Origin: Raillietiella orientalis
Taxonomy: Eukaryota
Assembly: GCA_036172245.1 (NCBI GenBank)
Contig: JAYWIR010000003.1
Span: 6,944,001-7,008,000 of the forward strand
DNA length: 64,000 nt
Direction of reading: 5' to 3'
The position numbers and the translations under genes were made by a program. Below, in pieces: positions 3,501-58,979 of this stretch (positions within the stretch are counted from its first letter, which is position 1; every line of letters starts with the position of its first letter). Below the pieces are notes generated by a model, which was given only the letters and a program-made list of their open reading frames with translations, did no database searches and was not told the DNA's origin.

Positions 3501-10901
<7,401 letters not shown>

Positions 10902-11520
10902 AAAAAACATGTATTTGTAATAAAAGGAGTTATTGCCAGTATTGTATTCACTGGCTGATCTCTTCCCGAACCTTATAAGTTGAAATATTTAAATGGTGCT
11001 CTTTATATCTGCGAATGTATTTTCTAATTATTATAATACTTTGAAAATTTTTTTGCTGTTTCCTAGTAATCAGACTTTCGTGTTGTGCACGCTGTAAATA
11101 ATGCATATTTATAAAGTATAGATGCAAATATTTTAAAGACTAGGCTAACTGCACATACAGTGTTAATAAAGCACTTAACTTTGTGTGCCCGTATTATTTT
11201 GGAATAATAATAGTAAAATAATATGGTGCTCTGGTCAGTAACATCCAAATCCAAGATACTGCAGCAAGAGAAATGAAATGTACCGGAAAAAAACTGAAAG
11301 CTTTTTGTCAGTTTCTTGCTTTTATAATTCGTTGGTTTCTAACAATAAAGAAGGCCTAGTACAGTTTTTTGTGATGACAAAAAAAAAAAAAATGTATGTA
11401 TTGCATTGTGTACGAAACCCGAGATCTTGTGCAAATTTTGTATATCTGGTGAATCGTGAAAGTAAAAATTCTCGTTAATGGAAAGCTTGAATCTTTTTCC
11501 CAAATCAATAAATAGATTTC
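10902..11520 (+). other. KAT6 3' UTR with several AATAAA hexamers (~10919, ~11165, ~11344, ~11507)
   Basis: AT-rich sequence after the stop codon with canonical polyA signals. Confidence 0.55.
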
Positions 11521-11566
11521 CACACTTCTGTGATGATGATGCCGTGGAGGAGGAAGGAAAAAAAGG

Positions 11567-11590
11567 GAGAGAGAGAGAGAGAGAGAGAGA
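11567..11590. repeat. (GA)n microsatellite at the compositional boundary
   Basis: About 12 GA units flanked by A runs. Confidence 0.9.
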
Positions 11591-14249
11591 AAAAAAAAGG
11601 AAAAAATCCCGAAATCAGCAGCAGCAGGAGTGTGTTGGCCTTGAGGAAAACACTAGTGTTTCTAAGAGTTCGGTGTGTGCCCTTTCAGGAAGCTGCGAGG
11701 GGAAAAGGTAGGCCCGCTGCTCACGTTCGCGCGTGGTGCAGCAGATGAGCGGCTGCATCTCCCGCATCCTCCCTTGGCGTTTCAGCGTGTGCGGCCCCCC
11801 CCCCCCCCCCGAAGCTTTTGCCACACCGAACGGTGGCCGGCGTGGTTCAGCCACCGGTGTGCGGCAAGCTGCCGGGGAGAGAGAGGGAGAGAGGCGTGAA
11901 ACTGGCGTGAAGTTGGTGACCGTCTCGAAGTGACCGTAGCCAACGTGCGCCGCTGCTCCCCACTTGGGGGAAAACAAAAGGCAAAAGCAAAAACGTGGAA
12001 TCCAAGGAACCCGAAAATTCGCTGCATTCGACCTCAAACCCCCCCCCCTCCCCCCGGAAGTCTCGGCAAAGTGTGCTCTACTGGTGCGCCTTCCACGGCT
12101 GCTGCACTCCAGCAGGCGTTCTTCGCCGAAGGTACGTTTCAGCTAATTTTTCCACAGTCTGTATGCAAGCGAGCCCCACCCCCACTCCCCCCTCCGCACA
12201 GAACCCCATCCAATTCCCAAGTGCGTTTGCTGAGAAGCACTCGTGAACATCATAAAGTATCACAGCGCCGTAAAAGTTGAGATTGGGTTCATTAGGAAGC
12301 GTTCGTGGCGTGCGTCCCGTCGACGGGATGTCCACTAACAAAAAACGCACAGACGGTTTTAAAGTTGGCGTTTTCAGGAGTTTACTGCGACGCCGACTTT
12401 GTCTGAAGCGTTTTTTTTCCCTGCAAAAAATGGAGCGTGCTCCCTGCGGACCTCGTCTCATCTTTCCTCCTTTCTTCCCTCATTTTGCTCCGACAACGCC
12501 GTGCATCCCCCCAAGAGTTCTTCTTTTGTGCGTGTGCCTCGCACTCCTTTCCACTTACCGTGAAGACACCGAGCGGGGCTTTTTGCACAGCCCCCCCTTA
12601 CCCCCCTCCCACGGCTCGTCATGTCCGTTTGAGACGGAATCCTCGGTCCGTTTGTTTGCCGGTGGGGGGGGGGGGTCCTCATCTCGGAACACGTCGACGA
12701 CCCGAGTAGGCGTGGGCAGTTGGGCCTTGCTCGCGGCATGATGCTGTGTGTGCCAATGGATCGCGTTCCCCTCCGCAGGCTTCTACCACGTGGTTGCAGG
12801 AGACGTCCGCTTCGGGAGGTTTCCCTTGAGGGTCTTCCCGGACGCCTCCGTGTCGGAGTGCCGTGGATAGTCGGTGGCCTCGCGTGGTCCGGAGGGCAGC
12901 GTCGCCGAGAGGCAAAAGCTGCCGACTCGGTCGGAGTTTCGGTTTCCCGTTTTGTGTACGTGTCGGCAGCACAAATCCGTCTCCCAGTCGGTAATGAAGT
13001 CTTGAATGGTCATTTCGCCAGTGGCCCCACGTGGTCACCGGCCCTCGCGTGCATCTGACCAGCCAGCGACTTGGGTGCTTATCATTCAGCAGTGGAATGC
13101 GGTCGGCGTAAGCCGCACACCGAGGCTGCTCGCAGTGGGATCGGTTGTTTTGGCAGGATTCAGGCTAAAATGCTGTTGCAGCATTCCCTCGGGAGAGGAA
13201 AAAACAACAACACGCTAAAGCTGGTAAAAAACAAATGCGAGGTGTTCGGGTTTCAGGCTTTAACTAGCAGCTGCTTTCTTTCTTTCTTTCTGTTTCTTAA
13301 CAGCCCTGGTGGTCGTTGGTACATCTCGTTCATCTCACTGTCTCATGAAACTTTAATGCCATGCAGATAGGCAATTAGGTAAGACTTACATTAAGAGCTC
13401 TTAGGAGGACGGCAGTCGTAAATCCTCGTGGAACGAGTTTCCGTAAGCTGCCAGCGCGCCCGGCGAACATGGAGTCCTCGTTTCGCATTTCGGGCCCCTT
13501 TCGGTCCTTACGCACGCTGTAATCTTCGTGATTTCGCCTTTGGCGCAGTTCACTTGGGTGCGCCGTTCTCATACCAAAAATGTCAACCGAGGTCGCTCAT
13601 GGAAGCTTTCGTTTTCTTTCGACCTGCCCTCGCTTGTCGAGGTCTTACGCTCATGATGGTCACTTGCGTTCTGCCCATTCGTCGGACCGGTGACCGCGCA
13701 CTGTGGAGCTGACTAAGGACAGAGAGTGGGTGGGTGGATGTTCAGGGCGCCGAGCATCGATGATGTGAAGTCGTCCACGCTTTCTCCGAAGTGGTTCCTC
13801 CTCCGGAAGCATCGCAGCATCAGGACCGAGTACGTGATCTTTGCGAGCGAGACGTTAACGAAAAAAGGTGGTTTGGCCGGAAGGATTCGTCCCGCACGCA
13901 ATTTCGCGAGGTCGACGGTGCACTCAGCGTAGCCATGAAATGTCAGGGAGACATGAAAGAATTCCTCGAAAGCAATGTGGATCGATGTCTTTGGTCCCTG
14001 GGAGGCGCCTGTGGGCTGGAAGCGAACGGGAAGCTCGCAGAAACGGGAAACCGTGCGACTCCGTGAACGCACTCTGAAACAGCTGATTCAATGTCACCCC
14101 AAGGAATGGTGCAGAAGCTGCAACTCCGGAAGTTGCTGCGGAAGTGCAAATGATTTTCACGCGAAACCAGCGTCCAAATGTTAACTTGCTGCTTCGTTCT
14201 TTAACTGTTTACGCGTCAATCCTTTTTTTTTTTTGCACTGCTTCGACAG

Positions 14250-14480
14250 ACATCGACGTCGGTTATCGTCAGCAAGTTTTTCCAGGAAAGGGGTCGAAGG
14301 ATCCTTTTCGATGATTCCGAGGATGCACAGAAAGATGACGGTACAGAAGACACCATCCAACAGGAATTTGTGTGCAGCAGAGGGCAGTCGCCCTGACGAT
14401 GAGCCCTGCCGAGAGCCCATTTGTTTGTGAATTGAAAATCCGTGACGGGGGCGTTGGACCCGGCGCAAAAGATCGATTGC
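14250..14480 (-). mobile_element. Degenerate non-LTR reverse transcriptase fragment
   Basis: FSIHKQMGSRQGSSSG...FLL...LADD resembles the GxRQG / YADD RT motifs. Confidence 0.55.
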
Positions 14481-14699
14481 GGAAATGGTGGAAACTCCTC
14501 CCTCTCTCCCATCTCCCACTGTTCTTCCTCCTCCTTCCCTCCTGATCCTGAATAGTAAATAAAGCGTGCTTTGGGGCGATCGGGTAATGAGGCGTAGGTG
14601 TGTATCGTAGGCTGGCTGCGCGTCCGCTCCCAGAGTCTCGACGTATTCGTCCTACTTTTTTGTTATTCCACATTTTGTTGCGTAAAGTAAGTCTTCGGG

Positions 14700-15480
14700 G
14701 CTGTTGTCCACCACCACTTCGATGCTGAGGACTAAATGAAGGCGAGTGAAGACGCCTGTCGATCGTCGGCTTGTGGCTGGCTGCCGGCTCAATTTACTGG
14801 AGCAGGCCAACAGTTTCCCAGCTGCCTGCCACCCCAGCCTGCTAAACTCCAGCCACGCAGTAGTCAACCAGAAGACGCTCGTCTGTGCAAAAGACATTTA
14901 CAAGCAATGGATGGAGTTCTGCGAAAATCATTGGAAACAGTCTGAGGGGAATCCAAGAGCGACATCAGCATGGCCTGGATGGACGGCAGGAAAACGTCCT
15001 CTCGGCTGAAAGCTTGAACCCAACGGGCCGAAGGTCACATCTGGGGAGTCGGCGTTTGCTTGGGGGAGTTTGCCGGGAAAGCCAATCGTCTTCCATCTTC
15101 TCGGGCAGTCCGACGCACGGAAGCGTCTCTCCCTCTCTCACTCCACGGGGCTCCCAGACCACCGGGTGGCAAAGTTCCTGCGCGAGCAGGATCGTGTTTC
15201 AGGGCATTTCCGTTTCCTGCCGGATACTCCGGACCTGCGCACTGCACACCTGCTTTCGCGGCGCGGCTCAGCATGCTGCCACCTGTGGGAGCACCCCTCG
15301 CCGGGAATGGCGCGGAGCGGCGTCCGTGCAGGAATTGCGAGGTGCGGGAAGAGAGGTTCTTCAGGCGCCTCCTCAATCAGCGAGGCGAGTCTGATTGCCG
15401 GAACGCCGCTCGGTGGTCCGGTTGCTTAAATCAACAGACTACCAGCAACCAGCCTGCTGGAAGCAAGCAACAGCGACCTT
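14700..15480 (+). mobile_element. Degenerate L1/Tx1-like ORF2 C-terminal fragment
   Basis: Frameshifted post-RT/zf-RVT-like remnants (KDIYKQW..., H and C motifs). Confidence 0.35.
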
Positions 15481-15539
15481 CCGGCAGCGGGAGCTGACGT
15501 GTATAATTGACAAAAGGAAAAAGTATATCTGAGTAAGTG

Positions 15540-16330
15540 GACAACTCGGCAGCTGACGGACGCTGGCACCCCGAGTGGCCCACACCCAAAGGACTGCTAC
15601 GCTGGGGAGAGCTGCCACAAAGACCTCCGGAGGAGGTGAAGTGGTCCCAGCGTGTTGAGACAGTGCAACCCTCCCCCATAAAGTGGCAGCAGTCGGCGAT
15701 CCTTCTGTAGCATTGGGGCCTGTCGTGCAACGCCTGCCCGCCGACATCATTGGACCCGGGGAGTGCAAGCTCGAATTGCAACGGGAGCGAAGAAAGAGGG
15801 TCCCTCCCGCACCTGCTCATGGATTGTGCTGCCCTTCGTCCCCTATGGGAACGCTTTTCTGCAGCCCTGCGTATCCCCGAGCGCAACCCCAGAGATGTTT
15901 CGGAGCTCTTCTTCCTGTGCGACACCCTCACGTGGGCCGCATCCCTAGCAGCACTTTGCTGCCTACGCGGCGGGATCGTGGCTGCATAGAGCTACGCTAG
16001 GGGAGGCCATGTATTTTGCGCGGTCCTCTTCCTGAGGATGGCCACAAGATAGCCCCATCTGGGAAGGGAATCTGATGAGACAGGAACTTGCCGGCATCCT
16101 GCAAAGATTGCAGAGGACGCCCTCCAGCAGCCTGTGATCCCTTCCCGATCCCCCAAAGTGTTTCATTTATTTTCATTTTGTCTTTCTTTTTGTTTGTCCC
16201 TACCCCCTCTGCTGCCGAGGCGCACCTCGCCGGCCTGCGTGCCGGTTGGGAAGGCGCGTTCAGCATTCATGGCAGGAGTGTTTCGATTTTCACCCGGATT
16301 TCGCCGGGGCTTTTATTTAAAAATAAACTT
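15540..16330 (+). mobile_element. LINE (L1/Tx1-like) 3' end, family copy 1
   Basis: KWQ...HWGL.CNA, HLLMDC...LW, ASLAALCCLRG; pyrimidine-rich 3' UTR; AATAAA at 16322; homologous to 16311-17200 (-) and 37290-38020 (+). Confidence 0.75.
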
Positions 16331-17200
16331 TTACAAAGATGTACAGTGGCTGGACCAATGCTCCAGCCACGCACGAAGAAACACAGAACCTGCCGGGTAA
16401 CCGGCTCGTAGACCGGTACGGTCCACCACGGCAGCAGCAGGGGGAAGGGGGGAAAAATAAAAAACTAAACAAAAAGAAAAGAAAAGGTGGGAGGGTACGG
16501 GAAGGGATCACTGTAGCTGGTGGGGCCGTTGCATCCTTCGCAGGATGCCGGCAAGCTCTTTCTGCATTCCTGGATCCAGGTGGGGCCATCTCGACGCCCT
16601 CCTCAGGAACTGGGCGGCGCCCTGGATAGCATCCTTATCGCGGGGTCCTCCCGTAGCCTTACTCCAAGCGCCGATGATCCCGCGTAGGCAGCACAGCGCT
16701 GCTAACGAGGCCTCAGGCCCGAAGGGCATCGGCAACGAAGAGGTCTTTCAGTGCGTCCCTTGGGTTTCCGCAGGGGATTCCGATGGCCGCGGCAAAGCGG
16801 AACCAAAGGTGCCGGAGGGCAACACAATCCACAAGTGGGTGGGGGAGGGCCTCCCGTTCCCCACACCTAACACAATTGGGGTCGACCGCTCCCTATGTCC
16901 AGTGGTGTCGGCGGGCGTTGCAGGGGAGTCCCCAATGCTGCAACAGTAGAGCCCACTCCTGCCATTTTAAGGGGAAGGTGGAAGTGTTCATCAGCACCGG
17001 GGGCCGCTTCAGATGTTCAATGTGAACATCGAGCAGCGCGCCCCAGCGCAGAAGTCCATTGGGAGGCGTACTCAGGAGTGTTTCGACTGCTGCAAGAATG
17101 GGTCTCTTTGCTTCTGGCTTGGGGCACCGAAGCCCATCCGGGGAAAGCAAAGGAACGCCTCCCGTTTCAACAGGAACACGCATGTTTGGGACTGATTTGC
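16311..17200 (-). mobile_element. LINE (L1/Tx1-like) 3' end, family copy 2, tail-to-tail with copy 1
   Basis: TFPLKWQEWALLLQHWGLPCNAR...EASLAALCCLRGIIGAW; same 3' UTR on the minus strand. Confidence 0.75.
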
Positions 17201-17362
17201 AGTGTTTTTCCATTCCGATGTGGTTGATTCGCCTTCTGCTGCAGGAGGGTTTCGATTAGCTGTTGCAGTTTGTGTATTTGGTCCATAGAATTTTGAACCT
17301 TTTTTGGATTCACATTACCTGTCGTAATGACCTCTCATAAATTCAAGACTAATAAGAAATGA

Positions 17363-17673
17363 AATATACATTAGCAGCACATGGGTTTCCGAAAAGCAGA
17401 AGAGGTTACTTACTGCTCAAAGCTGGAGTAATCAATGGACTCTCAATTGGCTATATACCTAGAAAATAGGACATCGATCATAAAAGTGGAGCTTGGGTGC
17501 TAAAACGACCGGAACTATGGGAAGTTAGCTTGGTCACTTTTCCTGCCAATTTAGCTGCCCAGGTCGTTAACGTAAAGAGTCAAGATAGTGGACAAGAAAT
17601 GTTCACGAGAGCAATAAAAAAGACAAGCGATGTACTTAAAAATATTCTACTTGAAAAACCTTGCCACGAATAG
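17363..17673 (+). pseudogene. HK97-family phage/GTA prohead protease, C-terminal half, Wolbachia-like
   Basis: YLLLKAGVINGLSIGYIPRK*DIDHKSGAWVLKRPELWEVSLVTFPANLAAQV; GLSIGY and EVSLVTFPAN are family motifs; premature TAG at 17467-17469; 5' end lost. Confidence 0.9.
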
Positions 17674-18139
17674 CAAACACTTACGTAACGTTCAACACGC
17701 TTAAGTCAAACCTAACGTTTGCACTACTATTTATTTAATACTTACACTAAAATATATAATTTTCTTAATATCTCGTGATTGTTAATAAATCCAATTCAGG
17801 GAAAGTCTTTAAAGTTCAAAAAACCCGAAGTGATTTTATACTCAGCACTGCTAGTGAGATTCATGTTAAAAGAAGAGAAAGCAAAAACACAGCTGGTGCT
17901 CTGTGTTTGCTTGGGGTTCCTGAAAACGATTGGGGCGAATATTGCCAAAAAGGTGGGTCAACTCATCTCCGAGGTAAGGACCGAAACGCTCGCCTCCTCC
18001 AAGGTGAGTATAATCAGCCTTATGGTCAAATATTCGTGCCGAGTCTCCGCCTTCTACGCCGAATGCATCTTTAAAATTAGCAGCTGTTTCCCTTATCTCT
18101 CTTCCCAGCCAGGCAGCCTCGAGCAAAAGTTCAAGCTTG

Positions 18140-18247
18140 CTATGCAAGCGAGCCAAAGACTGTTCGACAACCTCTTTTGTTCTACCAGATCTGTTTCTCG
18201 TCCCCCCTGCTCCAATCGATGAATCCTGGGTAGCGGCAATGACACTC
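18140..18247 (-). pseudogene. hemA: 5-aminolevulinate synthase, second fragment (after the LINE insertion), truncated
   Basis: SVIAATQDSSIGAGGTRNRSGRTKEVVEQSLARLH corresponds to ALAS GAGGTRNISGT. Confidence 0.88.
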
Positions 18248-19177
18248 CCGTTTGCCCAAGTCCCACAAGGGGTGGGGCGAAATTTATTTTCTTTTATCAT
18301 TCACTCTACATATTCATGCATTCGTTTTCTCCAATCATTCCACTTACGTCACCTGGAAGTCTGCTTCGTGGGATCATCGCTGGGGTTCACTACACTTGGG
18401 GAGCTGGGCGTCGTTCATGCTTGGACGTCGTCCTCGGTCCTTCTCAGGATATGTCGGTAGTTCCAGGCCTGTACTCTTCCACAGTTTCTTATGCCGATCT
18501 CCTTCTGGATAAGCCCTTTCGGGATTTCCATCGGAGATACGGCGGTGCTGGTGGTCTTCATCTTCCACCACCGCACATGGATGGCGGTGATGAAGAGGGC
18601 GATGGTCGTCCTTACCATGGGATTGTAACAGGGAACGTTCCCATTTCCTTGGAACACGCTTGCTAAAATTCCCATGGTCGATGTGGTGGGCAGTCCGATA
18701 GCCCTTTTGAGGGGGTGCCACTCTTGTTGCATAGTGGGACGTGTATCCTTGTCTCCACATGCTTTGCAGGCCTCATCTTCTCTTCTTCCCGTGAATCGCT
18801 TCATGGACGTCCCGCACAGGATTCCTCCAGGATAAAACATCAGGGGGTTATCCTGTGAATCCAGTGACAAGTCACTCTTCCAGAGCGTCGTTCCGATCGC
18901 CAACAGGTTTATCCCAGCACTCCCGTGGCGATCGGCGGCTTCTTGGAGGGCACTGGTGTCTTGGTCCTCTTCGACCATTGGTCGGCATAGGTTTCTCTTT
19001 GTTACCCTGGACCACACGAAGTTGTGTTGTGGTTTTCCCACGCTTCGCGGGTCCTGTGGGTGAATCTTCCAGCTATCCTGTCAATGCATCGGAGTACTCA
19101 GGAGTGGTGAAGGTACTCTCCTCGTCTCCATGCTTCAGCTGCTTGCAAGGTAACCCTGGACCGCTGGTGGATCCAGT
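18248..19177 (-). mobile_element. 5'-truncated non-LTR retrotransposon (L1/Tx1-like 3' end) inserted in hemA, 17-bp TSD
   Basis: TAGCGGCAATGACACTC at both 18231-18247 and 19178-19194; ORF 18415-19041 with CKACGDKDT and later WWK; AATAAA on the minus strand at 18283-18288. Confidence 0.8.
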
Positions 19178-19375
19178 TAGCGGCAATGACACTCTCATTT
19201 CGTGACATTCCTAAGTAGTTATTACTGCACCAGACGATGACTTCTCTATGTCTTCCATAGCCCATAATATAGGGAAGCCTTCCAGGCAACGACGCAAAGC
19301 GTGTGAATTCACGATGGCTCCCTTCTTCTTTTATACCTTTGATTTTTCTTCGTAGAATATTTCTTTGTAGTCTAC
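19178..19375 (-). pseudogene. hemA: 5-aminolevulinate synthase, N-terminal fragment (alphaproteobacterial type)
   Basis: VDYKEIF/[frameshift]/KIKGIKEEGSHREFTRFASLPGRLPYIMGYGRHREVIVWCSNNYLGMSRNESVIAA; WCSNxYLGM motif; no intron or mitochondrial presequence. Confidence 0.9.
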
Positions 19376-19460
19376 CGAGTTTTTACCTATTCATAGCTAA
19401 TGGAATCATGAGGAATTATTCAATTCTTTTATATTTATTCCTTAGCTTACTGCTGTACAA

Positions 19461-19610
19461 CAAGCTTCGCTGGGATCCGATCTTTTCATGCAGCCTCATC
19501 AAAAACGTTTGTTTTAGCATAAGACAGCCACTTTTATGCTCATTTGCTCAGCGTGCTTATTTATAATCAAAATTCCGGGATTCCATCGTCAGGTGCTGGA
19601 ATGATACCCT
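19461..19610. repeat. Degenerate Wolbachia palindromic element-like intergenic repeat
   Basis: CTGGGATCC...GGATTCCATCGTCAGGTGCTGGAATGATA resembles recalled Wolbachia repeat termini. Confidence 0.6.
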
Positions 19611-19639
19611 TTCCGGGCTCTTAAATTGAAACTAATCTA

Positions 19640-20050
19640 AGCTATACATATTAAGAAATGTACCAAGTGAAAAAAAAGGCAAAAGAAGCCCCGTGGCAGC
19701 TTGTCATTCACTGACCATTTCTCAATATTGGTCAGAAAATTTATAAAAGGTGCACACAGTGCAAAAAGTGAAACACGACACGCCAAATACCCAAAGTTTT
19801 CTGCCATTAACCTGCACACATTGCAAAGGTAAATGATTAGCTTCACTACCACGATAAGGGGAACGGCGGGGGTTGGCAAGGAGTTTTTGTGCCATTTAGC
19901 CACCGGCCTCCTGATGGGCAATGTCCGCATACTTTGCTTAGCATTTATCTGTGTGAAGCTTCCTAAAAACACTTTGCAATGGCTGAGAATTATCTGTTTA
20001 ATAATAAATAATTAGCTTCACTACTATGATAAGGGCGGACACAGGGATCC
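19640..20050. repeat. Wolbachia-type intergenic (MITE-like) repeat with internal duplication
   Basis: AAAAAAAAGGCAAAAGAAGCCCC start; ATTAGCTTCACTACYAYGATAAGGG occurs at ~19836 and ~20010. Confidence 0.5.
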
Positions 20051-20054
20051 AATT

Positions 20055-20273
20055 TTATAAAGCTTTGGCTTCGTTTAACGCCTTCGAAGTCAACGGTTTC
20101 TGCACCGTCAGCATCGCAACCTCAGATGATGAAATATCTTCCTCTTCACGCTCTGTTGCTTCTCTGAATAGCCTTTCTGCTAGTTCTTGAGCAGGCTGCT
20201 TATTAAATTCAGACGGTTCGGCGAGACATTTTGAAGTTTCTGAATCAAGAGCTATATTAATTGCATCTGCCAT
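20055..20273 (-). pseudogene. Wolbachia-like small hypothetical protein, putative antitoxin of a RelE-type toxin-antitoxin pair
   Basis: MADAINIALDSETSKCLAEPSEFNKQPAQELAERLFREATEREEEDISSSEVA resembles a recalled Wolbachia family; C-terminus probably frameshifted; no toxin visible. Confidence 0.55.
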
Positions 20274-20419
20274 AAGTTTACCAAAATCTACCACTATGAA
20301 GATTATACAGGATTTTTTTAAATTTTTCAATAAGAGAATGGATCAGGATGGAGTACTGTATAAAAATCTGTTTAAGCTTATTACAGCAAATCCAAAGGTG
20401 TCTTATTATCATAGAAGTC

Positions 20420-21160
20420 TTTCCGAGCCAACCCGCGTCGAGCGGGCGTGCGGGGCCTCCCGGGGGGGGGGGGTCGGTTGCGCCGTCTCGCATCGGTCAG
20501 CCGGGGATCGCGCCTGGGGTGCGAGGCAGATCCTTTCCGGGAGTCGAGATGGACAGGAGAACGTGGGACAAGCTGAAGACGAGGCAGGAATCGCCCTCAC
20601 CATCTCTCGTCACGTGATTCCTCCACGTTCTCTTTCCGGGTGGCACTCCGGAGGTGGCGCGCGGACGGTCAGCTGCAACCAAAGAGGTTCAGGACGTGGC
20701 TCTCGGCTCAGCGGTGTGGGAACTGCGCCTGCGGCTACCCAACTACCTCTTTCCTTTCTATCCTCTCGGTCTGCAAGGGAGGTCGTATGGAGGCGGATGC
20801 CCGGTGATCTCGGGGGAGCGAGGCACACGAAATGCTCTGCTGGACGGCAGCACGGTGCGTCGCTGCTGCTGTCACTCGGAGGATCAGAGAGAGTGGACGA
20901 CGTCTGATCCCCTGACACCTACGGCGGTGGTTCACAAAGTTATCGCCCTCCCGCATCCATCCGGTAGCATAGAACCTCCAGGAGAGCAGACCTTCTGCCA
21001 TCAGGCGGTGCTTTTCTCCTCCAGGAGGCTCGATAGCATCTCGTGATGCGTCGGGAGAGGTCCAGAACTCCTTCAGGCGTTCTGAGGTCGCAGCTACCGG
21101 AAGCCTGAGAGTCATGCTTCATCCTTGCAATCTACTCCCACGAACCGGGAACCGAAAAGC
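20420..21160 (-). mobile_element. Degenerate LINE ORF1 (gag-like) fragment
   Basis: LRLP...ERLKEF...YATGWMRE pattern; marks the right end of the Wolbachia-like island. Confidence 0.4.
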
Positions 21161-21229
21161 AGGGGGAGCCTATAGACAGAGCGATTGAGAGGCATCGAAG
21201 TGGAGGAATTGCCGAGGAAGCAAGGAATT

Positions 21230-21440
21230 GGCGAAGAGGAAGAGGGGGTGATGGTAAAAAGAAGGAGGAGGAGAAGAGGAGGAGGGGAAGAGAAGGGAAG
21301 GAAGACAAGAAGAGGAGAAAAGGAGAGAGAAGAGGAGAAAAGGAGGGGGAGAGGAGAAGATAGAAAGAAAAGGGAGAGGAAGAAGGGGAGGAGGCGGAGA
21401 GAAGAGGAGGAGGTGGAAAGCAGGAGGATCAAGGATGAAA
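21230..21440. repeat. Purine-rich (GGA/GAA) low-complexity tract
   Basis: About 200 nt almost only A/G on the plus strand. Confidence 0.85.
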
Positions 21441-23474
21441 AGAACAGTTGTGCTTTTATGGTGACGGTGACCGGCCATCCCAGCGTGCAGCTTCCGGGTT
21501 TCATAAATTCAAAAGTTCTCTCCAGCAGGGTCAGGAGAATTCCGCGCCGAAGCCTCCAGGCGGATGCACTTCAGGAAAGAGGGATCCGTGCCTGAAGACC
21601 TCCCTGGAAGGATCTGTAGACTCGCACTTCCAAGATCGGGAAAGAGCTCTCCTTCGTTTCCCGATTGCAGTTCCTGAGGATGGTGCCACCGACGACGCTG
21701 CGGGGAGAAGGCTCGGGGCAGCCTCCCATCCTCTGTAGAGGAGGCGCCTCCCGTGCTTCCTGGCGCCTTTTCCCCCGTCCTCTCTGGCAAAGACGGGAGG
21801 TGGCCTGCCAGAGAGCCTGGTGGGAGGACGGAAGGGCGCCCTCCGATCCACTGCCTTCCACAGAACCTCTGTGGACGAGAAGGGCCTGGAAGCTCTATGG
21901 AGTGGGGTGGCTGGTCGAAAAATGAGGAGCAGAGAGGGTTCCAGCTGCCTGGCGCTCCCGTCCATGCGGGCAAGAACGGGGTAGGTGGGAATGATAGCGG
22001 TACTGGATGGGGGAGACCTACGCTGACCACCTTACACCCCAAAAGAGCATCTACATGGACCAGAATTTCCCCGTTTATTTCCTGAGGATACCGGCCATTT
22101 CGGGAGTGGAGGCGGAAGGCGGGGGCTGTGTGGGGTGCAGACGTCGAATGCAGAGGGCGCAGCGGCCTCACTCCAGTTCTTCGCCGGGCTCCGGGAGCTT
22201 AACTGGGGGGGCGGGACTCGTCTGGAAAGCAGGGGAGATCACGCGGACGCTGGGCGGGGAGGAGGACGACCCGGCGCCGCAGTTGCAAGGATGCTTAGTG
22301 CGCTTCGCTTCCCTCCTCTTCCTCTGCCCTGCAGATGGCGACCCGCTCCAACTCCACCCGCCTGGCAGTCGCGCACTCAAGGAACGCCTCCCGCTGGAGG
22401 GGCAGCCAGTAGAGCGGGCCGGGCGGCTTCTGAAGCGGTCCGTCTCCGGACAACCCAGGTCCTCCCACCCGTCCACCGAGTCCCTTCGGAGCCCTCGCTC
22501 TCTCTGCACGGATGGGAAGAAGGGTCCTTCGCTCCCTCTCCCTTGAGTGGGAAGTCAGGAACCAGGGATCAAGGCCGTCCGGATGAGCGCGACACGCCCC
22601 GACTCCAGGATTCCCTGGCGTCTTTCCTCCTCCTCTTTGAAGCTCGATCGCCGCCCTCCGGCGCGCCGACGCAGACGCCAACGCGTCCCTCAGTGCACGC
22701 GGACGCACGGAGTGCCAGTCCTTTGGATCGTTTCCCCGAAGTATCAAGTCAGCTCAGCATCCCCTTCCCCTTGCAGTCGTCGAGGGCATTCGCTTTCGTC
22801 TCCCCTCTTCCGGTTCGGGGACGAGGCGGGAAGAACCGAAATGGGCATCGGAAAAGCACAGCGCTGTCCGAGAACCGACGACCGCTTCGTTCGTCGCTCA
22901 ATAGATGGCGCTGCGTTGCCCGAAACGGAAGCTCCCTTGCAGAGGCGGCGGCGGAGAGGGTCCGGTGAGAATCGGCCGCTAACCGCGGGCGATTCGCTTC
23001 CACCACTCGGGATATGTCTGCTCCCGGACCAGAGCTGTTCCTATTGGGCCGGCGCTTTCCGCCTGCTCTCGGGGAAGCTGGGAAGGTGGACCGCCAAGGC
23101 AGGCGGGGAAGGGAATGCGCCGCCGGTGCAAGCATCCCTCCCTCTGCCGCTTCAGAGACCGTGAAAGGTCGAAGAGGGGATGGATGGCAGGTCGGCGTCT
23201 TTGGAAACGACACGACCGACTCTTCGCGTGCGGTCGGGTGCCTGGTGATCGCGAAGGGTGGGGTGGGGGGCATCTCTCCCCCCAGGGGCCAAGAGGGAGC
23301 CGTCTCAGAACAACGCGCGCACGCGGGTGGTGCTGCTGGAGCACAAATGACTGCAAGCACCCGCCCCCTCCGTAAGATGCAGACCGTCGAGGCCGTCTTC
23401 GCACCCCCGAGCTCGGCTTTGCCACACGCCTGGAGGCCACTCGACCAACTCTCCAAACCCGGATAAGGCTATAC

Positions 23475-23652
23475 CTTGGAGCTGCCCTATATTCTTGTGG
23501 ATGTTGTAAATCACCAGGAGCACGATGTAGGTGACCAAGAAGCTCACGGTGAACATCAGCATGAAATCCGTCTCCAGGCAGGGAACAACTGGCTGGGAGC
23601 GGGCATGTGCCGCCGGCATGCCCTGATGCGAGGTCACGGGCACGGCCGACAT
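23475..23652 (-). CDS. Putative first coding exon of a single-pass (type II-like) membrane protein, paralogue B
   Basis: MSAVPVTSHQG...DFMLMFTVSFLVTYIVLLVIYNIHKNIGQLQ; strong C/G third-position bias; weak donor GTATAG at 23474. Confidence 0.45.
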
Positions 23653-24031
23653 CGCTCCTCGCGTGCTTCGCCCGAGGCTCCCTGGATCGGGGTCTCTACC
23701 GTCCTTGGCGACACAGCCGTTTCACGCGGGCCACGGCCCGCAGCGAGCCCTCTTCACCAGCAGCGCCGGCGAGGGCTTGTCGCTGACTTTCCCTTTCACG
23801 GACAGCTGACCGGGCGGTGCGTTTCGCTCCCTCGCTCCGCCAACAATGGAAAGCGAGAGCGCGTCGCCCGGGAAACGAGCCGCAAACATTCGAGCCGGCG
23901 CGGTTCCTCCTCTCCGGCACGGCGCCTCGGAGCGCAGCGCGTCCGTCGGCAACACGCGGGCAAAAAACAAACAAACACGGGGGTGCCGGTGGGCTCTCCA
24001 AGGGGGTTCCTGCGCGCCTCCATCCGGACGA

Positions 24032-24229
24032 CCCCCGCGTTCCCTTTGCGGCAGCTTCTCGCGGCGCCCAGCATCCGCTTCTTGCCGTGCCTCGTGCCCT
24101 CTGGGTCGGGAAGCAGCAGCCGGAACCCCCTCTGGAGCTATAGAAACCCCATCGGACCAGGGTCGGGAGCAGCCACGTCCGGAACCCTCCCCCTCCTCAT
24201 CGCGGCGTGCCAGCGCGACGAGGACTGCC
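24032..24229 (+). repeat. Local direct duplication, copy 1 (copy 2 at ~26094-26311)
   Basis: CCCCGCGTTCCCTTTGCGGCAGCTTCTCGCG...GGACCAGGGTCGGGAGCAGCCACGTCCGGAACCCTCCCC shared. Confidence 0.85.
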
Positions 24230-24595
24230 TCCCGCGTCGCTCGCTCGCTCTGCGGAGAGGCCAGCGTCGCGCGGAGGCCCGCCTCCAGGTGCCATCCAGG
24301 TGCGGCTCCGTTTCGGCCCGTTCCCGCCGCCGCCGCTGCGAGGGGACGGGGACGCTTCGGCCGCGACAATCTGGGGCAACCCGGGTCTCTCGGCGCAGCT
24401 GCGCCTCTAGCGGCCTGGTCGCGGCGGCCCTTCGTTCCCCGACCCGGCGGCAGCGCAGGGGGGAATGACGCGCGCGCGTGCACACCGCGGTGTTCCCCCC
24501 TCACGGAGGGCTTCCGCCGCGACCGCGGTCACAGCTCGAGCCCCCCCTCTCGGGGGAGGAGTCCGGGTCGGCGGCTCCAGCCCGAGGGTACTTAC

Positions 24596-24889
24596 GGGTT
24601 TCTTCGAGTACGAGACGTACAGGAGGTACAGGATGACCAGGAAGATGTAGCCCGCTACCACGGGGATGACGTACTTGATGACGAAGTCCACGTTGTAGAT
24701 GCCCTCCGAGGCACGGATCTGGGTATGGTTGGCCTGCACGGGGACCGCCACGAAGGCTGGCTGCGCCTCAGCGCTGGCGCTCAGGGTCCGAGACTTGCCC
24801 TTCTTCTTGCCCTTCTTCTTGTCGGGCTTCAAGGGCGCCGCCCGTGCGGTGATGGCTTCGGGGGCGGGCGATTCGGCCTCCGAGGACAT
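24596..24889 (-). CDS. Putative first coding exon of a single-pass (type II-like) membrane protein, paralogue A
   Basis: GCC-ATG context; basic tail KKKGKKKGK, then DFVIKYVIPVVAGYIFLVILYLLYVSYSKKP; consensus donor GTAAGT at 24595; strong codon bias. Confidence 0.65.
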
Positions 24890-26093
24890 GGCGGAGTCCG
24901 GGGAGAGACAGCGAGGGGGGCGCCGGGGAGAGGTCAAAGGAAGGAGGGTGAAGGCACGGAGATTCCACTCCGATTGTGGAGGACGCTGGAGATTTTTGCC
25001 TGCGCGCGCTAGAGCGAACAAATGAGGAGGTCAGAACAGAGGGGGGGTCGCTAGGCAACCTCGCGTACGGGGGAGGGGGCGAGGGGTCTCCAGCCGCCCG
25101 CCTCCTGGAGCGAAGAGGAACGCCCGTAGCAGCAGCACGCGCGTGCTCAGTTTTCGGTCCATCGTCTTCTGGGCACGCGAGGAATGCTGCCCTTCTTCGG
25201 GATGCTCCGCTAGAGACCAGCCCGCGGGCAGCCTCTTGGGGATCCGCTCATCCCGAACTGTCTCTCTACGTCACTGTGGGGCCTCCAGCCGGAACCCTAT
25301 GCAGCGGAACAGCGTGATTTCTCCGTCGGGCGTCTCAGGCTTCCCCCTAGCGAGCGAGGAAGGGACCCAGGCGATAGATGGGGAGGGGAGGGATGAAGGC
25401 ACTTTGGATGGCACGGGGTTGTCAAGTAAACCTCGCAATGATCCGGCCATTCCGCGAGTCCGCACCAGTCCATCACGTGGGGAGATCATGGAGAGGTCAC
25501 TCAGGAGCCAGGCGCATCCGTGGGGTTCCCGAGGTGCACCTGCGATCGCCCCCGAACTGGATGCGCCTCCTTTGGCTGATTCCTCCCTGTCCGCGGGGCC
25601 GCCGAGCCGGACAGCGTGGAAGACCCCACGACCCTCCGGTAGGGCTGCTCCGGCCCCCGACCCAGAGGCCGGAGCAGCCCTACCGGAGGGGGAGAAGGAA
25701 GCGGCCCCAACCTCGCCTTTTTCACGGAGTGCCGCTCCCCCCCACCCACTGCACTGAAGACCGCAGGCATCCGATGCGAACCCCCTGGGAAAAAAGGTCC
25801 CATCCGCCACCACGGAGGAGCAAGTGCGCCCCTTTCCCGCTTCCCGTGGCAACGGTGGAGCGAGGAAGAGGCGCGTCTCCAATGACAAACACCTGATCGC
25901 GGTGTTCGCGGAGCGCGCCCTCCGGCGAGGCGCCAGAAAATCCCACAAGGCAAAGTCTGAATCCTCCCACGTAGCGGAGGGGCAGACTCCGACTCCATGG
26001 ACGACCCGACGCACCTACTGGGAGGCACCCCTGACGGATGCCCCCTCCGGGAGCCGAATGGGCTGCTCCCTGAGAACGCGCGATGCGGGCAAT

Positions 26094-26311
26094 CCCCGCG
26101 TTCCCTTTGCGGCAGCTTCTCGCGCCGCCCATGATCCGCTCCTTGCCGTGCCTCGTGCCGTCTGGGTCGGGAAAGAATGAGGGAAGGGAGATAAATCAGC
26201 AGCCGGAACTCCCTCTGGAGCTATAGAAGCACCACCGGACCAGGGTCGGGAGCAGCCACGTCCGGAACCCTCCCCCTGCTCATCGCGGCGGGCCAGCGCG
26301 ATGGGGACTGC
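26094..26311 (+). repeat. Local direct duplication, copy 2
   Basis: Matches 24032-24229 with a short insertion. Confidence 0.85.
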
Positions 26312-26639
26312 CCCTCGAGGCCTCTCCCTCGCCCCCATTCGAGGAAGACGGCAGTAGACGTGACCCCCAGGGAGTGTGGACGGGACTGTCCCTCGGCCGC
26401 TCTCGCAGGAGCGCCCCCTGACGAAAGGTACGCCGCGCGCGCTGGCAACCGGGAAGACCTCACCCCGGAGGGCACGAGGACACTGCGCGTCCGCGTGCTC
26501 GGAGCCCTTCCGTCCTTTCCGGAGCCCCCCCCTCCCCTAACGTGCCAGCACCCTCGGGAAAGCCTGCAGGCTACGCGGGAGCTACCCCAAGGTGCGGCGC
26601 GCGGAGGGCAGCTGGTGGCAGCTCTCCCGGAAACCTGCA

Positions 26640-27420
26640 CGAAGCAGAAAAATCCGGACAGATCCGCTTGTTCTTGGCACCCCACCGCCGCGGGCAAAAA
26701 GCGAGAGTCTCCAGGGGTCAAGCAAAGGATAGGGAGGGGGGAGGCCTTTCTGGTCACTTTTCGCGTTCCCTTCCTGGCTCCGAGGAAGTTCCACTGAAAC
26801 CAACCAGCCAGCGCCGTCCTCAAGAGCGCCGCTACCACGGTCATCTGGTTGCCCCAGGGCTTTTTTTTTCCAGACAAAGGAAGACGAACGGGCAGCGTGG
26901 ACCGGCGGATCCAAGGGTAGGAGGACCGCCGACGCGCCGGCCGGCTGTATGGAAGGACAGGCTATGGGGTAGGGGAAGTGCTTGGGAGTGTACGGCTGCC
27001 TGCCTGTGGCGCAGCTCCCGCACGAGGGAGTCGCCATCCTTCGTCCGGGGACGCCGCCCACTGGTTACCCGCTGCAAGGACAGCAATGCCTCTTCTTGGT
27101 GGGTGCCACCAGGCTGTCCAAGTGGAGGGGGAGGGATCGCGGAATGCCCAGGTACGTTCTGCACAAGGGAGAGGTCCCCTGGAGCGGGCACTGGGAGTCG
27201 CCGCGTCGTCCGACCAGCCCGCCCTCCACCGGCTCACCAATTCCGTCGCTCTTGCTACATGGCCACCCGCCCTATCGCTGGCGACCTCCCGGAAGTCCGC
27301 GAGATGCAGGGAGAATCGGGCAGGTCCGCCCGTTCTTGGCGCTCTGCCGCTGCGGGCAAAAAACAGGAATCTCCAGAGACTAAGCAAAGAATGTGGGGGG
27401 AAGGGGGGAAGGGAGGATCC
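26640..27420 (+). mobile_element. Degenerate LINE ORF2 C-terminal fragments; related inverted copy at ~33590-34140
   Basis: GGCTGCCTGCCTGTGGCGCAGC shared with the reverse complement of ~33600-33625; 26640-26740 resembles 27300-27410. Confidence 0.6.
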
Positions 27421-33589: not shown

Positions 33590-34140
33590 GCATTTCTCCG
33601 GGCTGCGCCACAGGCAGGCAGCCAGACACTCCCACGCACCTGCCGCTGGGCTGCCGTGATCTTCGGGACGCGCGCCAACGCCTCGTGGCGGTCCTGCCTC
33701 GACCCGACGACACCCTGGAAGAGATGCTGCGGAGCTGCTTCACGCGGGGAGGTCTTTCGCCCGCTCCCCCGGTCGCCCGACCCTACAGCCCCGTCTTCTC
33801 TACGGAAGAGCCTTCGTCGGGGGGTCCGCGGTATCCCGGGACGTCACCCTATCAGGGAAGAGGGCCCGGGCGCCTCGATCCCGCACGGATAGGGAACAAA
33901 GCCAAAGGACCCTTGGAGGACGCCGTCTGAATAGCGCGCAGGTTGTGGAAGAGAGCGGAGGAATGACCGGTGACCCCTGCTCCTTCCCCCCTTTCACACA
34001 TGCGTGTATTAGTTGACTCTTCCTCCCCTACACCAAAGCCTGCCCTTCTGTGCAGGTGGCCTGCCGTCGGTAGTCTCCCGATGTATCCACCGGTCCATGC
34101 GGCCTACTTGGCTTTTGTCTGGAAGAGAAACTCCTCGGGG
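33590..34140 (-). mobile_element. LINE fragment related to 26860-27020, interrupted by ~33640-34010
   Basis: Reverse-complement nucleotide similarity in two blocks. Confidence 0.55.
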
Positions 34141-35424: not shown

Positions 35425-35465
35425 CTGTCTATATCTATATCTATCTATCTATCTATATCTATCTG
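35425..35465. repeat. (ATCT/ATATCT)n microsatellite in an AT-rich patch
   Basis: Direct reading. Confidence 0.8.
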
Positions 35466-35699
35466 ATTAATTATTACATTGTATATTGATTTGCTCCCTT
35501 TCCAGAGTCCCGCAGGCGGTGGGGAAGTTTGTTCAAGCATCAACAAATCCAGACAGAAAATCTCTGGCAACACTGACAGACGCAATCTATTCAACGGTTC
35601 CCATTCTGGTGAATGGAGCTGGATGGGCGATACCTAGCAGAGACTGCGAGGTACACTCAAGTGTCCGCTCTGGAGCTCTTGCTTAGCTGCAGGTACGCC

Positions 35700-38020: not shown

Positions 38021-38099
38021 TATAAGTGAATGCCCTGGGGCACCCGGGTAAAGAAAACTCAGTCTGCAGTCTTTTCGGATGCAGACTGAAGGATAACGA

Positions 38100-46100: not shown

Positions 46101-47269
46101 TTGTGTGCGCCGAAGAAAGGAACTCACCTTCACGCAGCTTCCTGAGTCTTCCTCTTAAACAGGAAGCGCGTCATCTTGAATTCTCATTGATGAGGATCAG
46201 GAAAGCAAGACACATGCCAGAAGAAGGACCTTTCTGGAATGGGATTATGCCTTTCTGAAAAGGCATAATCCCTTTGCTGAACGTGCACTGTCCAAGCTGA
46301 GAGAGTGGGTTCCTCTCTATTCGGTGGACTCTACGCCACGCTACGTTCAAAACCTTCGATCTGTAGAGTCTAGGCGCTCTCGGAAGAGTGGCAAAAAAGT
46401 GTAGGAGACGAGGGAGAGGCTGCGAGCTCGAAGCCCGGAAGTGCGAATGCACCCTAGCGAGCAACACACGCTCTTGGAGGGCCGACGTGGATAGATCAGG
46501 GAAAAGCAACAGAAGCTGTGGAAGGATGCCGCCTCCCCTGAAATTCCTTTCTGCAGACCTGGATCTTTTGAAGAAATGGCGGAGAAAGCAAAAAGACTGT
46601 GCCTTGTTGATGGCCGCTGCTGAAGCTGTGTGGTCGAATCGTCACCTCTTAGCGCTTCCGAGAGACAGCAGGAACCGCCAGGCTTGATCCAACAAAGCCG
46701 AGTCGTCTGGCGCCTTAAGGAGGAAGGCTACGGCGTCCCTCACAAACAGCTCACCCCCCTTCCTCACCTCAATAGCGGAATGCCCTGCCTCTCCCAGTTT
46801 CGAGCGCTCAAGCCCTAAGGCAGCAACGATGACGCTAAACAAGCAAAGCAGAAGCGGTGAGGAACGCGAAGGCACGTTCGGAATTGAGCAGTCGGTTCCT
46901 CCCCATTGAGAAGACTCCACGCTGCTTTGGGCCTCAGCGTCCTATTTTACCCATTTCTGATGAGCATTTTCTCTGTCGACAGCAATGTTGAATTGAAGAA
47001 AGCCTCGCTGATCACTCGGAGATTCGATTTTCTTTTGATATCCACTGCTGACTTTACTTAGGTTCAATTCTTTCGCTAAAGTGCCTCCTTTTATTGTCTT
47101 GATCTTGACCCAGAGATGTAGGTCCTCCTATTCATTCACCCATATTTTATTCAAGGTGTGCTTTGGGTTCAGCGTTCCTTTGTCGTTTTCTACAGATGGA
47201 TTTGCTGTGAGCACTGGAGGCAGCATTTGGGCTAGGGTTGCCCGGCCCTGAGGCCTTGGTCGCTAATTA

Positions 47270-49400
47270 TCTTGGATTCCGGTCCTTGCAGTTCGTGGAC
47301 GCACAGCGATATTGGCCGGTGGAGGGTTTCCGGGGTGCGGTGGAGCTCTGAAGCCGGAGTGAACATGGTGGGCAGCAGCAGAAGGTCGTCAGAAAAGCGC
47401 CAGTGGGACACGAGCTTGTCAGAGCTGCCAGGGCACCTCTGAGTGCCCTCAGCACCGGCTCAAAGTAGGTGCTGAAGGGAAAGGGGCTCAGGCCCAGTAG
47501 CAGGGATACTCCAGGCCGTCTCCCTGGCGTATCCCTGCTATGGCCGCGCAAGCCTGCTCCTTCCCGCTGAAAGAGACGCTGATCGACGCGCCGCGCCATA
47601 GGAGGCCGGGAGTACAAGCGTTCCAGGAGCTCCAGCGGAAATTCCTGGCCGACGCAATCGAACGCCTCGCACAAGTCGACTGCGACCGCGGGGGCTCCCG
47701 CTGGCTGTGGTGGCGGCGCTGGCGGGTTCGTTGCCCATGCGAGGGGTGCCACCCTGAATTTTCGGGATCGCCGTCCACGGACGGACAGGGGCACTGGAGG
47801 GAACGGCAAAGGAGCATCCCAAACATCCAGGGCTTGACCGATGAGGCAGCTTCTGCGTGCTGGGCGCACCCAGGTTGAGGTTTTTTCCCCCAACGGATTC
47901 CTCCCCGCTTCCTTGGGCGCCTTCTGGGGATTTCCCAGAGGCTGTCAGATGTCTGTCCACAGGATTTCTTTCCCCTTCGTGAACGTCGCCGAGCGCTCTG
48001 AATCCCATAGCGACGCCATTCGCCGACTCCTTTCTACCTCTGATCTTGCGAACTCGCGCAGGGAGGACGGCAGCGCATCCATGTGGTGGAAAATCCACAA
48101 GTCTCCCTCCGCTTTGCGAGGTGAAATTCCTCTTCTTGCGGACGCGACGTGTCCCAGCATGTCCGGGATCCGCTTCTTTGGCTGCTTGGCAACGAGAGCC
48201 TCTGTTTTCAAGGACGCCTCCTCTGTTTCGGAGATGCCGAAAATTCACGTGTCTGCGGTTCTGCTAATCGGGGCGATTTCTAGGGGTCGCAACAGGAGGT
48301 CCCTCTCTTTCGACTCCCCCTCTTCCCCCCTGCTCTCGGAGCGGCAGACGCTCGAGCAAAGCGCAAAGACAGGCAGCAGCAGGACCCATAAGAGCAAACC
48401 GTTTCCATGGCTGCGAGGCCATTCTCTCTGTAGACCTTGCCTTCCAGGTCCACAAGACAAATTGGCGCGGACCAACAACGTCTGCGAACTGGAGAGCCCG
48501 GAAGGAAACCGCGTGGTGTTTAGCTACGGGGAGCATCCCGTGGAGGTGAGTCGAGGTCCTTAGCTGACATGCCTCCTCTCTCTCGAACTCGGCTGAAGAT
48601 GAGTTGCGCGGCGACCGTCCTTCCTCTGCGAGTCAAGGACGCCTCTCCCGACGCGCCTTCCGTCTTCCTGCGTTTACGATCGCACGCGTGTTCATGCGCA
48701 CCTCGAGGCTGCGGATCGCAGCTGACCGGGAAGAAGACGGCGACCTTGAGGGGGCACAGCATCGCTGAGGCGAGCCCTAGCTGCTCGCTTGGTCGGTCGT
48801 TCTAGGACAGAAGGTCCGCGCCCCGCCCAGATGCCGACAGATCCCAGTATCTCCGATGGGCTGTCCCGAGGAGCTCTGAAACCTCGAGCTTCGGCCGCCC
48901 GGAGCGCATGGGGATCGGCAAAGCCAGTGCTCCCGGGCACTCGAAAATACACCTTCTGGTCTTCGTTCAGCTGTTCCGCGATCTCGACAGCAGCGACAGT
49001 GCAAAGGTCGAGGAGGCGCGGTCATGCGCCACAGGGTCTCAGGAGAGCTTCCCTTCGCCTGCACTTAGGTGGAGTGGAAGAAAGAAGTGGGCAGGGCAGA
49101 TTGGCTGCAGCACCGGGGAGAGACATTGCCGCCCTGCTCGGGAAACATCCGGGTTGCGCCCAAGGTGCACGTGTTTCTTGGTGATTCCCTCCTTAATAAC
49201 GGTGTGGGGAGGCGCGACCGAGCAGGGAACGTCCCCGAAGGTTGCCTTCTGGTCCTGAGGATGGAGGGAAGGGCATCGAGGTGGTGACGAAGATCGCTTG
49301 CGCGGTGATCTGCAGCACGGCTGGTTGAGTGGAGACAGTTTCCTCCCGAGAAATCAGACGTCACCTCCCTAACGAAACCTGGGTCCAGTCGCAAGGACCA
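47270..49400 (-). mobile_element. Degenerate L1/Tx1-like ORF2 including the RT core
   Basis: VAVDLCEAFDCVGQEF, GIRQGD, LSPFPFSTYFEPVLR. Confidence 0.75.
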
Positions 49401-50331: not shown

Positions 50332-50442
50332 GGTTTGACGCCACTATAGGTTGCTTCACTCAACGGCTATCCAGATATTATCAACCTTCTTTCCAATAAG
50401 GATAAAAAACTAGATGATATTAATATAGTATTGGTAGAATAG
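50332..50442 (+). pseudogene. Single degenerate ankyrin repeat
   Basis: GLTPL*VASLNGYPDIINLL matches GxTPLHxAxxxGxxxIVxLL; stop at the His position; AT-rich. Confidence 0.65.
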
Positions 50443-58922: not shown

Positions 58923-58979
58923 TTCCTAAGGGTCACTCAGTCCGCGTGCAGCTCGTCTGTTTCCTGCTCCAGGAACACC

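Follow-up and report, generated by a model that had tools for sequence, protein, structure and literature searches.

A decayed mosaic of Wolbachia-derived fragments in the Raillietiella orientalis assembly, very probably an old nuclear transfer

Introduction

A 64,000-nucleotide stretch of the Raillietiella orientalis assembly GCA_036172245.1 (contig JAYWIR010000003.1, positions 6,944,001 to 7,008,000 of the forward strand; hereafter the window, with coordinates counted from its first base) was analysed around an AT-rich island, which a sequence-only reading had placed at 17340..20420 and had taken for decayed Wolbachia-like DNA integrated in the host genome. DNA searches against Wolbachia genomes showed the island (17321-20410) to be a mosaic of short Wolbachia-derived pieces, among them remnants of an HK97-family prohead protease gene and of hemA, the gene for 5-aminolevulinate synthase (ALAS). 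The island is very probably a nuclear Wolbachia transfer (NUWT), old and non-functional.

Extent and structure of the island

The GC content of the island is 0.30-0.48, against 0.57-0.66 in its flanks. A search of five Wolbachia genomes with 17200-20500 as the query returned 235 matches, every genome being represented, and the Wolbachia-like DNA was found to run from ~17321 on the left to 20409 on the right, GC-rich flank beginning at ~20410-20420, so that the proposed island was recovered at nearly the proposed position. No Wolbachia-like DNA was found in 1-17400 (5 genomes), left of 17321 in 16900-17420 (60 genomes), or in 20400-40000 (60 genomes, 5 candidates scored per genome); these whole-genome searches covered the window short of 60000-64000. 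No Rfam family reached its gathering score anywhere in the window, and in 17200-20500 none was found even at E <= 1.

The segments of the island are listed in Table 1. Most are bacterial, as had been proposed for the island as a whole, the part that is not being the insert in its middle, which splits hemA. Six-frame translation recovered all four motifs on which the sequence-only reading had relied, GLSIGY and EVSLVTFPAN on the + strand (~17437-17560), and WCSNNYLGM and GAGGTRN on the - strand (~19230 and ~18210, respectively). The broken protease and ALAS genes are likewise present, as fragments, with neither gene near complete (~90 of 180-191 codons and ~110 of 409 codons). Wolbachia-style repeats were also borne out, with 123 of the 150 matches listed (of the 235 from five genomes) falling on 19464-19899.

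In one complete Wolbachia genome, the counterparts of the pieces start at 1,435,275, 748,913, 1,254,838 and 844,151, while in the window unrelated pieces abut within 3-7 bases. Distant source positions together with tight joins indicate a mosaic, and not a slice of a bacterial chromosome; the synteny of the three genes in Wolbachia, put forward as a check, does not hold, the pieces deriving from distant genome positions. The last Wolbachia-like segment stands out of order, its counterpart in one genome lying just downstream of the toxin gene discussed below.

Table 1. Wolbachia-derived segments and associated features of the window (nt, nucleotide identity; aa, amino acids)
Feature	Coordinates	Strand	Remarks
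HK97-family prohead protease, 3' fragment	17321..17676	+	72-79% nt to Wolbachia loci
Spacer and start of the next gene (~45 codons, stop)	17677..17956	+	collinear with Wolbachia
Internal 141 bp of an unrelated 1179-aa Wolbachia gene	17963..18103	-	71-75% nt
hemA codons ~66-110, with GAGGTRN	18108..18253	-	70-75% nt
23-bp hemA target sequence, left copy	18231..18253		
924-bp non-Wolbachia insert splitting hemA	18254..19177	-	GC 0.53
23-bp hemA target sequence, right copy	19178..19200		
hemA codons 1-~72 and ~70 bp of the Wolbachia upstream region, with WCSNNYLGM	19178..19463	-	75-87% nt
Non-coding Wolbachia repeat elements	19470..19891		further partial copy at 20004-20035
Small multi-copy Wolbachia gene, 5' part and upstream region	20047..20339	-	
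Last Wolbachia-like segment	20338..20409		84% to a stretch downstream of the toxin gene in one genome
ccmF (heme lyase), part, with frame breaks	46909..47315	+	GC 0.46, against 0.37-0.40 in Wolbachia

Gene fragments in the island

The protease fragment keeps the last ~90-100 codons, the 5' half being missing, and carries an in-frame TAG (17467-17469) and small indels. It scored below the cut-off against both family models, with 19.1 bits (E 0.0016, cut-off 21, profile positions 131-156 of 165) for Pfam Peptidase_S78 (PF04586), and 25.1 bits (cut-off 59, profile positions 116-141 of 142) for the NCBIfam HK97 proheadase (TIGR01543); an intact Wolbachia protease gene scored 117.3 bits as HK97 prohead protease. 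The fragment is homologous to the C-terminal end of the family. Together with the DNA that follows it, the fragment aligned to a wTis contig in a single blastn alignment (17384-17955, 603 columns, 72% identity, E 7.5e-83), and the product of the gene after the protease is, in one complete Wolbachia genome, a coiled-coil protein of 446 aa. The adjoining 141-bp piece matches a different Wolbachia locus (L102, 3414-3569) inside an open reading frame (ORF) at 173-3712, and that 1179-aa gene was without a Pfam or NCBIfam family.

As in bacterial ALAS, the hemA pieces start right at the N-terminus; they are homologous to the N-terminal 110 residues of bacterial HemA (TIGR01821), and their alignments to solved structures of the bacterial enzyme cover residues 7-67 and 73-110. 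A stop stands at the fourth codon, and ~300 codons are missing. Against TIGR01821 the score was 39.1 bits (cut-off 338.55, profile positions 5-68 of 402), compared with 584.8 bits for an intact Wolbachia hemA as 5-aminolevulinate synthase. Since most of each domain is absent, neither the HemA nor the protease fragment can be an enzyme.

The repeats next to hemA are found dozens of times in a Wolbachia genome, and in one Wolbachia locus (L096) no ORF lies over the repeat. In another (L097, 1396-1560), the Rfam family WsnRNA46 (Wolbachia small RNA 46; 75.6 bits) overlaps the start of a repeat copy; the window's copy was without an Rfam match.

For the small antitoxin-like protein, the open frame at 20055-20330 was 62% identical over residues 3-52 to a Wolbachia ORF of 77/78 aa, which overlaps a downstream ORF of 95 aa, and a similar downstream ORF in another Wolbachia genome weakly matched ParE_toxin (24.1 bits, cut-off 23). 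The claim stands insofar as the homologue precedes a RelE/ParE-type toxin in Wolbachia, and fails in that the homology is limited to those residues and no antitoxin family is involved, neither the small frame nor its Wolbachia homologue having a Pfam or NCBIfam family. BLASTP of the frame against one antitoxin-like Wolbachia ORF gave no alignment; a subsequent search of genomes turned up better copies. No toxin gene follows the frame in the window. The name 'antitoxin' therefore reflects gene position alone, and the frame is open partly by accident.

The insert in hemA

The 23-bp copies at the two edges of the insert correspond to one and the same stretch of Wolbachia hemA (locus L105, 1501-1523), and they differ from each other at 2 of 23 positions. 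An open frame of 221 codons runs along the - strand of the insert (18418-19080). The insert had no match in 10 Wolbachia genomes and is without terminal inverted repeats. The frame matched no Pfam family even at E 10, and nothing among longer proteins. In the Atlas feature search, 22 of 30 hits for the insert were zf-RVT clusters (best 0.95, 181 shared features), the first cluster being named 'putative tick transposon', which is a lead, not proof. The insert probably represents the 3' portion of a host non-long-terminal-repeat retrotransposon, truncated at its 5' end, and appears to have landed after the bacterial DNA had already been integrated. An insert of this kind, with a duplication of 23 bp of hemA, points to residence in a host genome.

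An exhaustive phmmer search with the frame of the insert gave two hits only (1.7e-10 and 6.3e-08), to RCC1/Ig-repeat or RGM-type proteins, which were rejected as repeat-driven and spurious, and BLASTP of the frame against the best of them gave E 0.026.

A second Wolbachia fragment

The ccmF fragment lies 27 kb from the island, beyond 26 kb of non-Wolbachia DNA. A 20-kb query containing it matched 40 of 60 Wolbachia genomes, the ccmF rows listed being at 64-77% nucleotide identity, and against a ccmF panel the fragment matched all 10 Wolbachia loci and none of the 76 from other alphaproteobacteria. Six Wolbachia loci that share 85-96.5% identity among themselves are 68-70% identical to the fragment, which is both more diverged and more GC-enriched than the island pieces. 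Bacterial fragments lying among tens of kb of non-bacterial DNA are consistent with one or more integrated, eroded insertions, and not with a contaminant.

Weak Wolbachia matches were also seen at 50079-50132 and 50774-50854 (74-81% nucleotide identity, E 1e-4 to 2e-6 per genome), in an AT-richer patch at 50151-50900, and these may be further remnants. Other AT-richer patches are present at 11001-11750, 35001-35700 and 60451-61000. The patch at 35001-35700 gave no Wolbachia match in 60 genomes and that at 11001-11750 none in 5 genomes, while 60451-61000, compared with two unrelated Wolbachia loci only, gave no hit.

Wolbachia origin and donor lineage

The search for best hits outside Wolbachia and the Rickettsiales, which the sequence-only reading had named as the way to overturn its assignment, returned Wolbachia as the best match for both DNA and protein. 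The hemA 5' DNA matched 56 of 60 Wolbachia genomes. For the hemA peptide, 31 of 43 loci were Wolbachia or Wolbachia-like metagenome-assembled genomes (MAGs), at 64-80% amino-acid identity, and the next relatives (Anaplasmataceae, Mesenet) reached at most 57%, apart from one 65% match that spans only 20 residues. Of 80 loci for the protease peptide, the top five were Wolbachia (63-80% amino-acid identity), with non-Wolbachia relatives at 40-57% over comparable lengths.

Phylogenetic placement, another of the proposed checks, agreed, the hemA, protease and concatenated trees all putting the window inside the Wolbachia ingroup. The hemA tree (38 rows, 366 columns) put the window in a 13-row clade (92/87), within which its position was not fixed, together with the Litomosoides Wolbachia, wStur, and a starred 9-row clade (with a Paracimex isolate and the symbionts of Tettigetta, Penenirmus and Mansonella among its members). 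The protease tree placed the window in the ingroup as against Neoehrlichia, without finer resolution. In the concatenated tree (1062 columns, 11 named genomes, with the Mansonella symbiont as the only member of the nematode supergroups), the window was sister to 5 rows (91/88), namely the Tettigetta/Penenirmus/Mansonella/two-MAG clade. The donor thus appears to have been nearest to the clade of Tettigetta, Penenirmus and Mansonella Wolbachia, a placement that the trees leave loose; this clade we take to be supergroup F, the name being our assumption and no result of the analysis.

Decay of the fragments

Changes in the window were counted at conserved sites, defined as those kept in at least 80% of Wolbachia rows, and affected 17 of 190 sites at codon position 1, 35 of 203 at position 2, and 21 of 120 at position 3. 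Second positions changing as often as third positions are unlike what is seen in a gene under selection. The frames are broken by indels of 2, 6, 6 and 7 bp in hemA and of 1, 3, 1 and 7 bp in the protease. Window-specific changes ran from AT to GC in 49 cases and from GC to AT in 12, and the base composition of the bacterial DNA is moving closer to that of the GC-rich sequence around it. The end branches leading to the window were 0.18 (hemA), 0.42 (protease) and 0.38 (concatenated) long, against medians of 0.057, 0.034 and 0.041, as expected of an old, neutrally evolving copy. The proposed decay is therefore seen in truncations, stops, indels, and substitutions blind to codon position; no sign of function was seen, and the island appears to evolve without function today.

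Divergence at conserved sites differed between the pieces, with 27 of 267 sites changed in hemA (10%), 46 of 246 in the protease (19%), and 71 of 268 in ccmF (26%, under a stricter site definition, the sites being those invariant among the six Wolbachia loci). Unequal decay of the two halves of hemA was considered and rejected (16 of 163 against 11 of 104 changed conserved sites, Fisher p 0.84).

Interpretation and alternatives

The claim that the island is an old nuclear insertion recording a past infection is supported by the Wolbachia origin of the pieces, their decay, the non-Wolbachia insert, the ccmF fragment, and a contiguous KAT6-like gene in the same assembled sequence (described below). 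Wolbachia living in the germ line of the host lineage would have released DNA, fragments of which would have been captured at a chromosome break and end-joined as short shuffled pieces; end-joining is suggested because unrelated pieces meet at tight junctions. The DNA, with neither promoter context nor a complete gene, has since collected substitutions, indels, and at least one mobile-element insertion. The transfer appears to be old.

Several observations weigh against this reading. The island is contiguous with the intron-bearing KAT6-like gene in the assembled sequence, the physical linkage being that of the assembly alone, and the Atlas cluster nearest to the N-terminus of that gene is mostly chordate, a group not known to carry Wolbachia; a vertebrate host, considered also for the isochore-like jump in GC, is unlikely in view of a 43-nt intron, the CpG pattern, and the ~78% identity to human KAT6A. 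Three long non-Wolbachia rows lie inside the ingroup polytomy of the hemA tree, and no tree has a starred clade that holds the window. Neither Pfam nor HMMER shows the insert to be a retrotransposon, no second copy of it was found within the window, and no poly-A tail was seen in the sequence. Finally, a single event alone does not explain the unequal divergence between the pieces, which may reflect different ages, local differences in rate, or unequal distances between the donor and the genomes sampled. It is conceivable, if rather unlikely, that the pieces came in separate waves of transfer from a very old or repeated association with a Wolbachia lineage beside the Tettigetta/Penenirmus/Mansonella clade, with GC-rich, CpG-replete intergenic host DNA rewriting them towards GC; the unequal decay (~10%, 19% and 26%) would then mark separate transfers. 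If, in addition, the host is Wolbachia-free today or lies outside the known host range of arthropods and nematodes, the fragments would be the sole record of the symbiosis.

An assembly artefact, in which reads of a live Wolbachia, a symbiont of the sequenced animal or of one of its parasites, were misjoined to host sequence, has to be weighed, as Wolbachia contamination of arthropod assemblies is common and the linkage is known from the assembly. A live genome would, however, give intact collinear genes in place of short fragments with stops and indels, and would not have four distant genome positions joined within a few bases. Moreover, no match to any of 60 genomes exceeds 87% identity, a non-bacterial insert flanked by a target duplication interrupts hemA, and a second decayed fragment lies 27 kb off, beyond non-Wolbachia DNA, all of which makes an artefact very improbable. 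The long end branches (0.18-0.42), the lack of a starred clade around the window, and a nucleotide identity of only 72-87% to the nearest Wolbachia could suggest a donor in a sister genus or among other Anaplasmataceae or Rickettsiales. Such a donor is hardly credible in view of the gap to other relatives on hemA (<=57%) and the protease (40-57%), the position of the window inside the Wolbachia ingroup in three trees, the repeats, of which Wolbachia genomes have tens of copies, and the ccmF fragment matching Wolbachia loci (10/10) and no other alphaproteobacterial locus (0/76).

Entry of the insert into hemA while still in the bacterium, as an insertion sequence (IS) element or a group II intron, before the transfer, would remove its value as a mark of host residence. 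Wolbachia genomes are rich in mobile elements, and the family of the insert was not recognised by Pfam or HMMER, but the insert was absent from 10 Wolbachia genomes, its GC of 0.53 stands against ~0.37-0.40 for the Wolbachia pieces, it has no terminal inverted repeats, its Atlas hits point to eukaryotic zf-RVT clusters, and a target duplication of 23 bp is longer than those known from bacterial IS elements; entry at the bacterial stage is improbable. Domestication would require the 91-codon frame at 20055-20330 or the 144-codon frame at 17866-18300 to be an expressed host gene. Both frames are open, and the antitoxin-like part is stop-free over 50 homologous residues, yet homology does not extend past residue 52 of ~77 and there is no partner toxin gene, while the 144-codon frame is a chance fusion of the hemA piece with the unrelated gene fragment. 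No family was recognised for either, and chance alone would be expected to yield frames as long as these in 2 kb of such composition (an estimate, uncomputed), so that a domesticated gene is extremely unlikely. An old, non-functional nuclear Wolbachia transfer remains the favoured explanation.

Comparison with known transfers and implications

Wolbachia transfers have been widely observed in arthropods and nematodes (PMC5467014), and the island is a further example of this well-known phenomenon, with no new kind of biology. Filarial NUWTs are described as non-functional, neutrally evolving infection fossils with small indels that nest in Wolbachia diversity (PMC12693587; Vancaester et al. 2025), and the pieces in the window share their fragment state, neutral decay and nesting. 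The setting differs from the filarial one in that the host gene of the window is KAT6-like (H15, double PHD, MYST) and the flanks are GC-rich, one 64-kb window having been seen (PMC12693587).

In the mite Tropilaelaps mercedesae, partial Wolbachia genes are reported, with no symbiont detected and a past one inferred (PMC5467014), and in the woodwasp Sirex noctilio 12 Wolbachia pseudogenes, with no current infection in the populations tested (PMC8962096). Both cases resemble the window in having short partial Wolbachia genes that speak for an earlier infection (PMC5467014, PMC8962096). The Sirex pseudogenes are mostly parts of Wolbachia mobile elements, whereas the window also has housekeeping genes (hemA, ccmF) and a phage-type protease (PMC8962096); the Tropilaelaps junctions were confirmed by polymerase chain reaction using a host primer paired with a Wolbachia primer, while those of the window are known from the assembly alone (PMC5467014). 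The large recent insertions of Drosophila ananassae have the same donor genus and a nuclear destination, but are near-complete, often duplicated genome copies, in contrast to the 2.2-kb shuffled, strongly diverged remnant found here (PMC4299567, PMC4558871).

The fragments would mark past carriage of Wolbachia by the host lineage and, roughly, the donor lineage, and could serve to date the association through sister species. The island also offers a small, clean example of shuffling on entry, a hit by what is probably a host mobile element, and drift to host base composition. For curation, it should not be removed as contamination, and its frames should not be annotated as bacterial-type host genes.

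Host surroundings and minor features

A KAT6/MOZ-type histone acetyltransferase gene containing short introns was found at 3480-10898, with a SAMD1-like winged helix, H15, and a MYST zinc finger with the MOZ/SAS domain; translation further showed two PHD-like fingers and a 43-nt GT-AG intron at ~6673-6715. Its MYST exon aligned to human KAT6A with E 9e-90 (~78% identity, counted from the alignment), and its 1099-codon last exon had no relative among longer proteins at E <= 1e-10. The gene has a GC content of 0.32-0.42 and a CpG observed/expected ratio of 0.34-0.63. From 12 kb on, over ~50 kb, GC is 0.52-0.69 and CpG is near expectation (observed/expected 0.8-1.0).

The island had been described as lying amid eukaryotic long interspersed nuclear elements (LINEs), which the flanks did not bear out. 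Among 204 flank ORFs scanned (59 of >=130 codons and 145 of >=100 codons, leaving out 77 ORFs at 42.6-63.9 kb), no Pfam family was found, reverse transcriptase included, the only hits being the KAT6 exons, and the flanks are accordingly not bacterial coding DNA. Flank ORFs with a motif taken to be LINE-like (15750-15986 and others) also had no Pfam family.

One repeat is present in three diverged copies (15585-16247, 16399-17063 and 37367-37960; 64-66% nucleotide identity), two of which stand in inverted orientation to each other immediately left of the island, and no protein family was recognised in it. A purine-rich tandem array (21256-21412; period 64 or 39, 2.5-2.7 copies), in which GC and AT skew are extreme, lies ~850 bp right of the island. 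The GC-rich flank also contains direct-repeat pairs at 56623-57042 / 58535-58938 (88% nucleotide identity) and at 24022-24248 / 26083-26332 (81% nucleotide identity).

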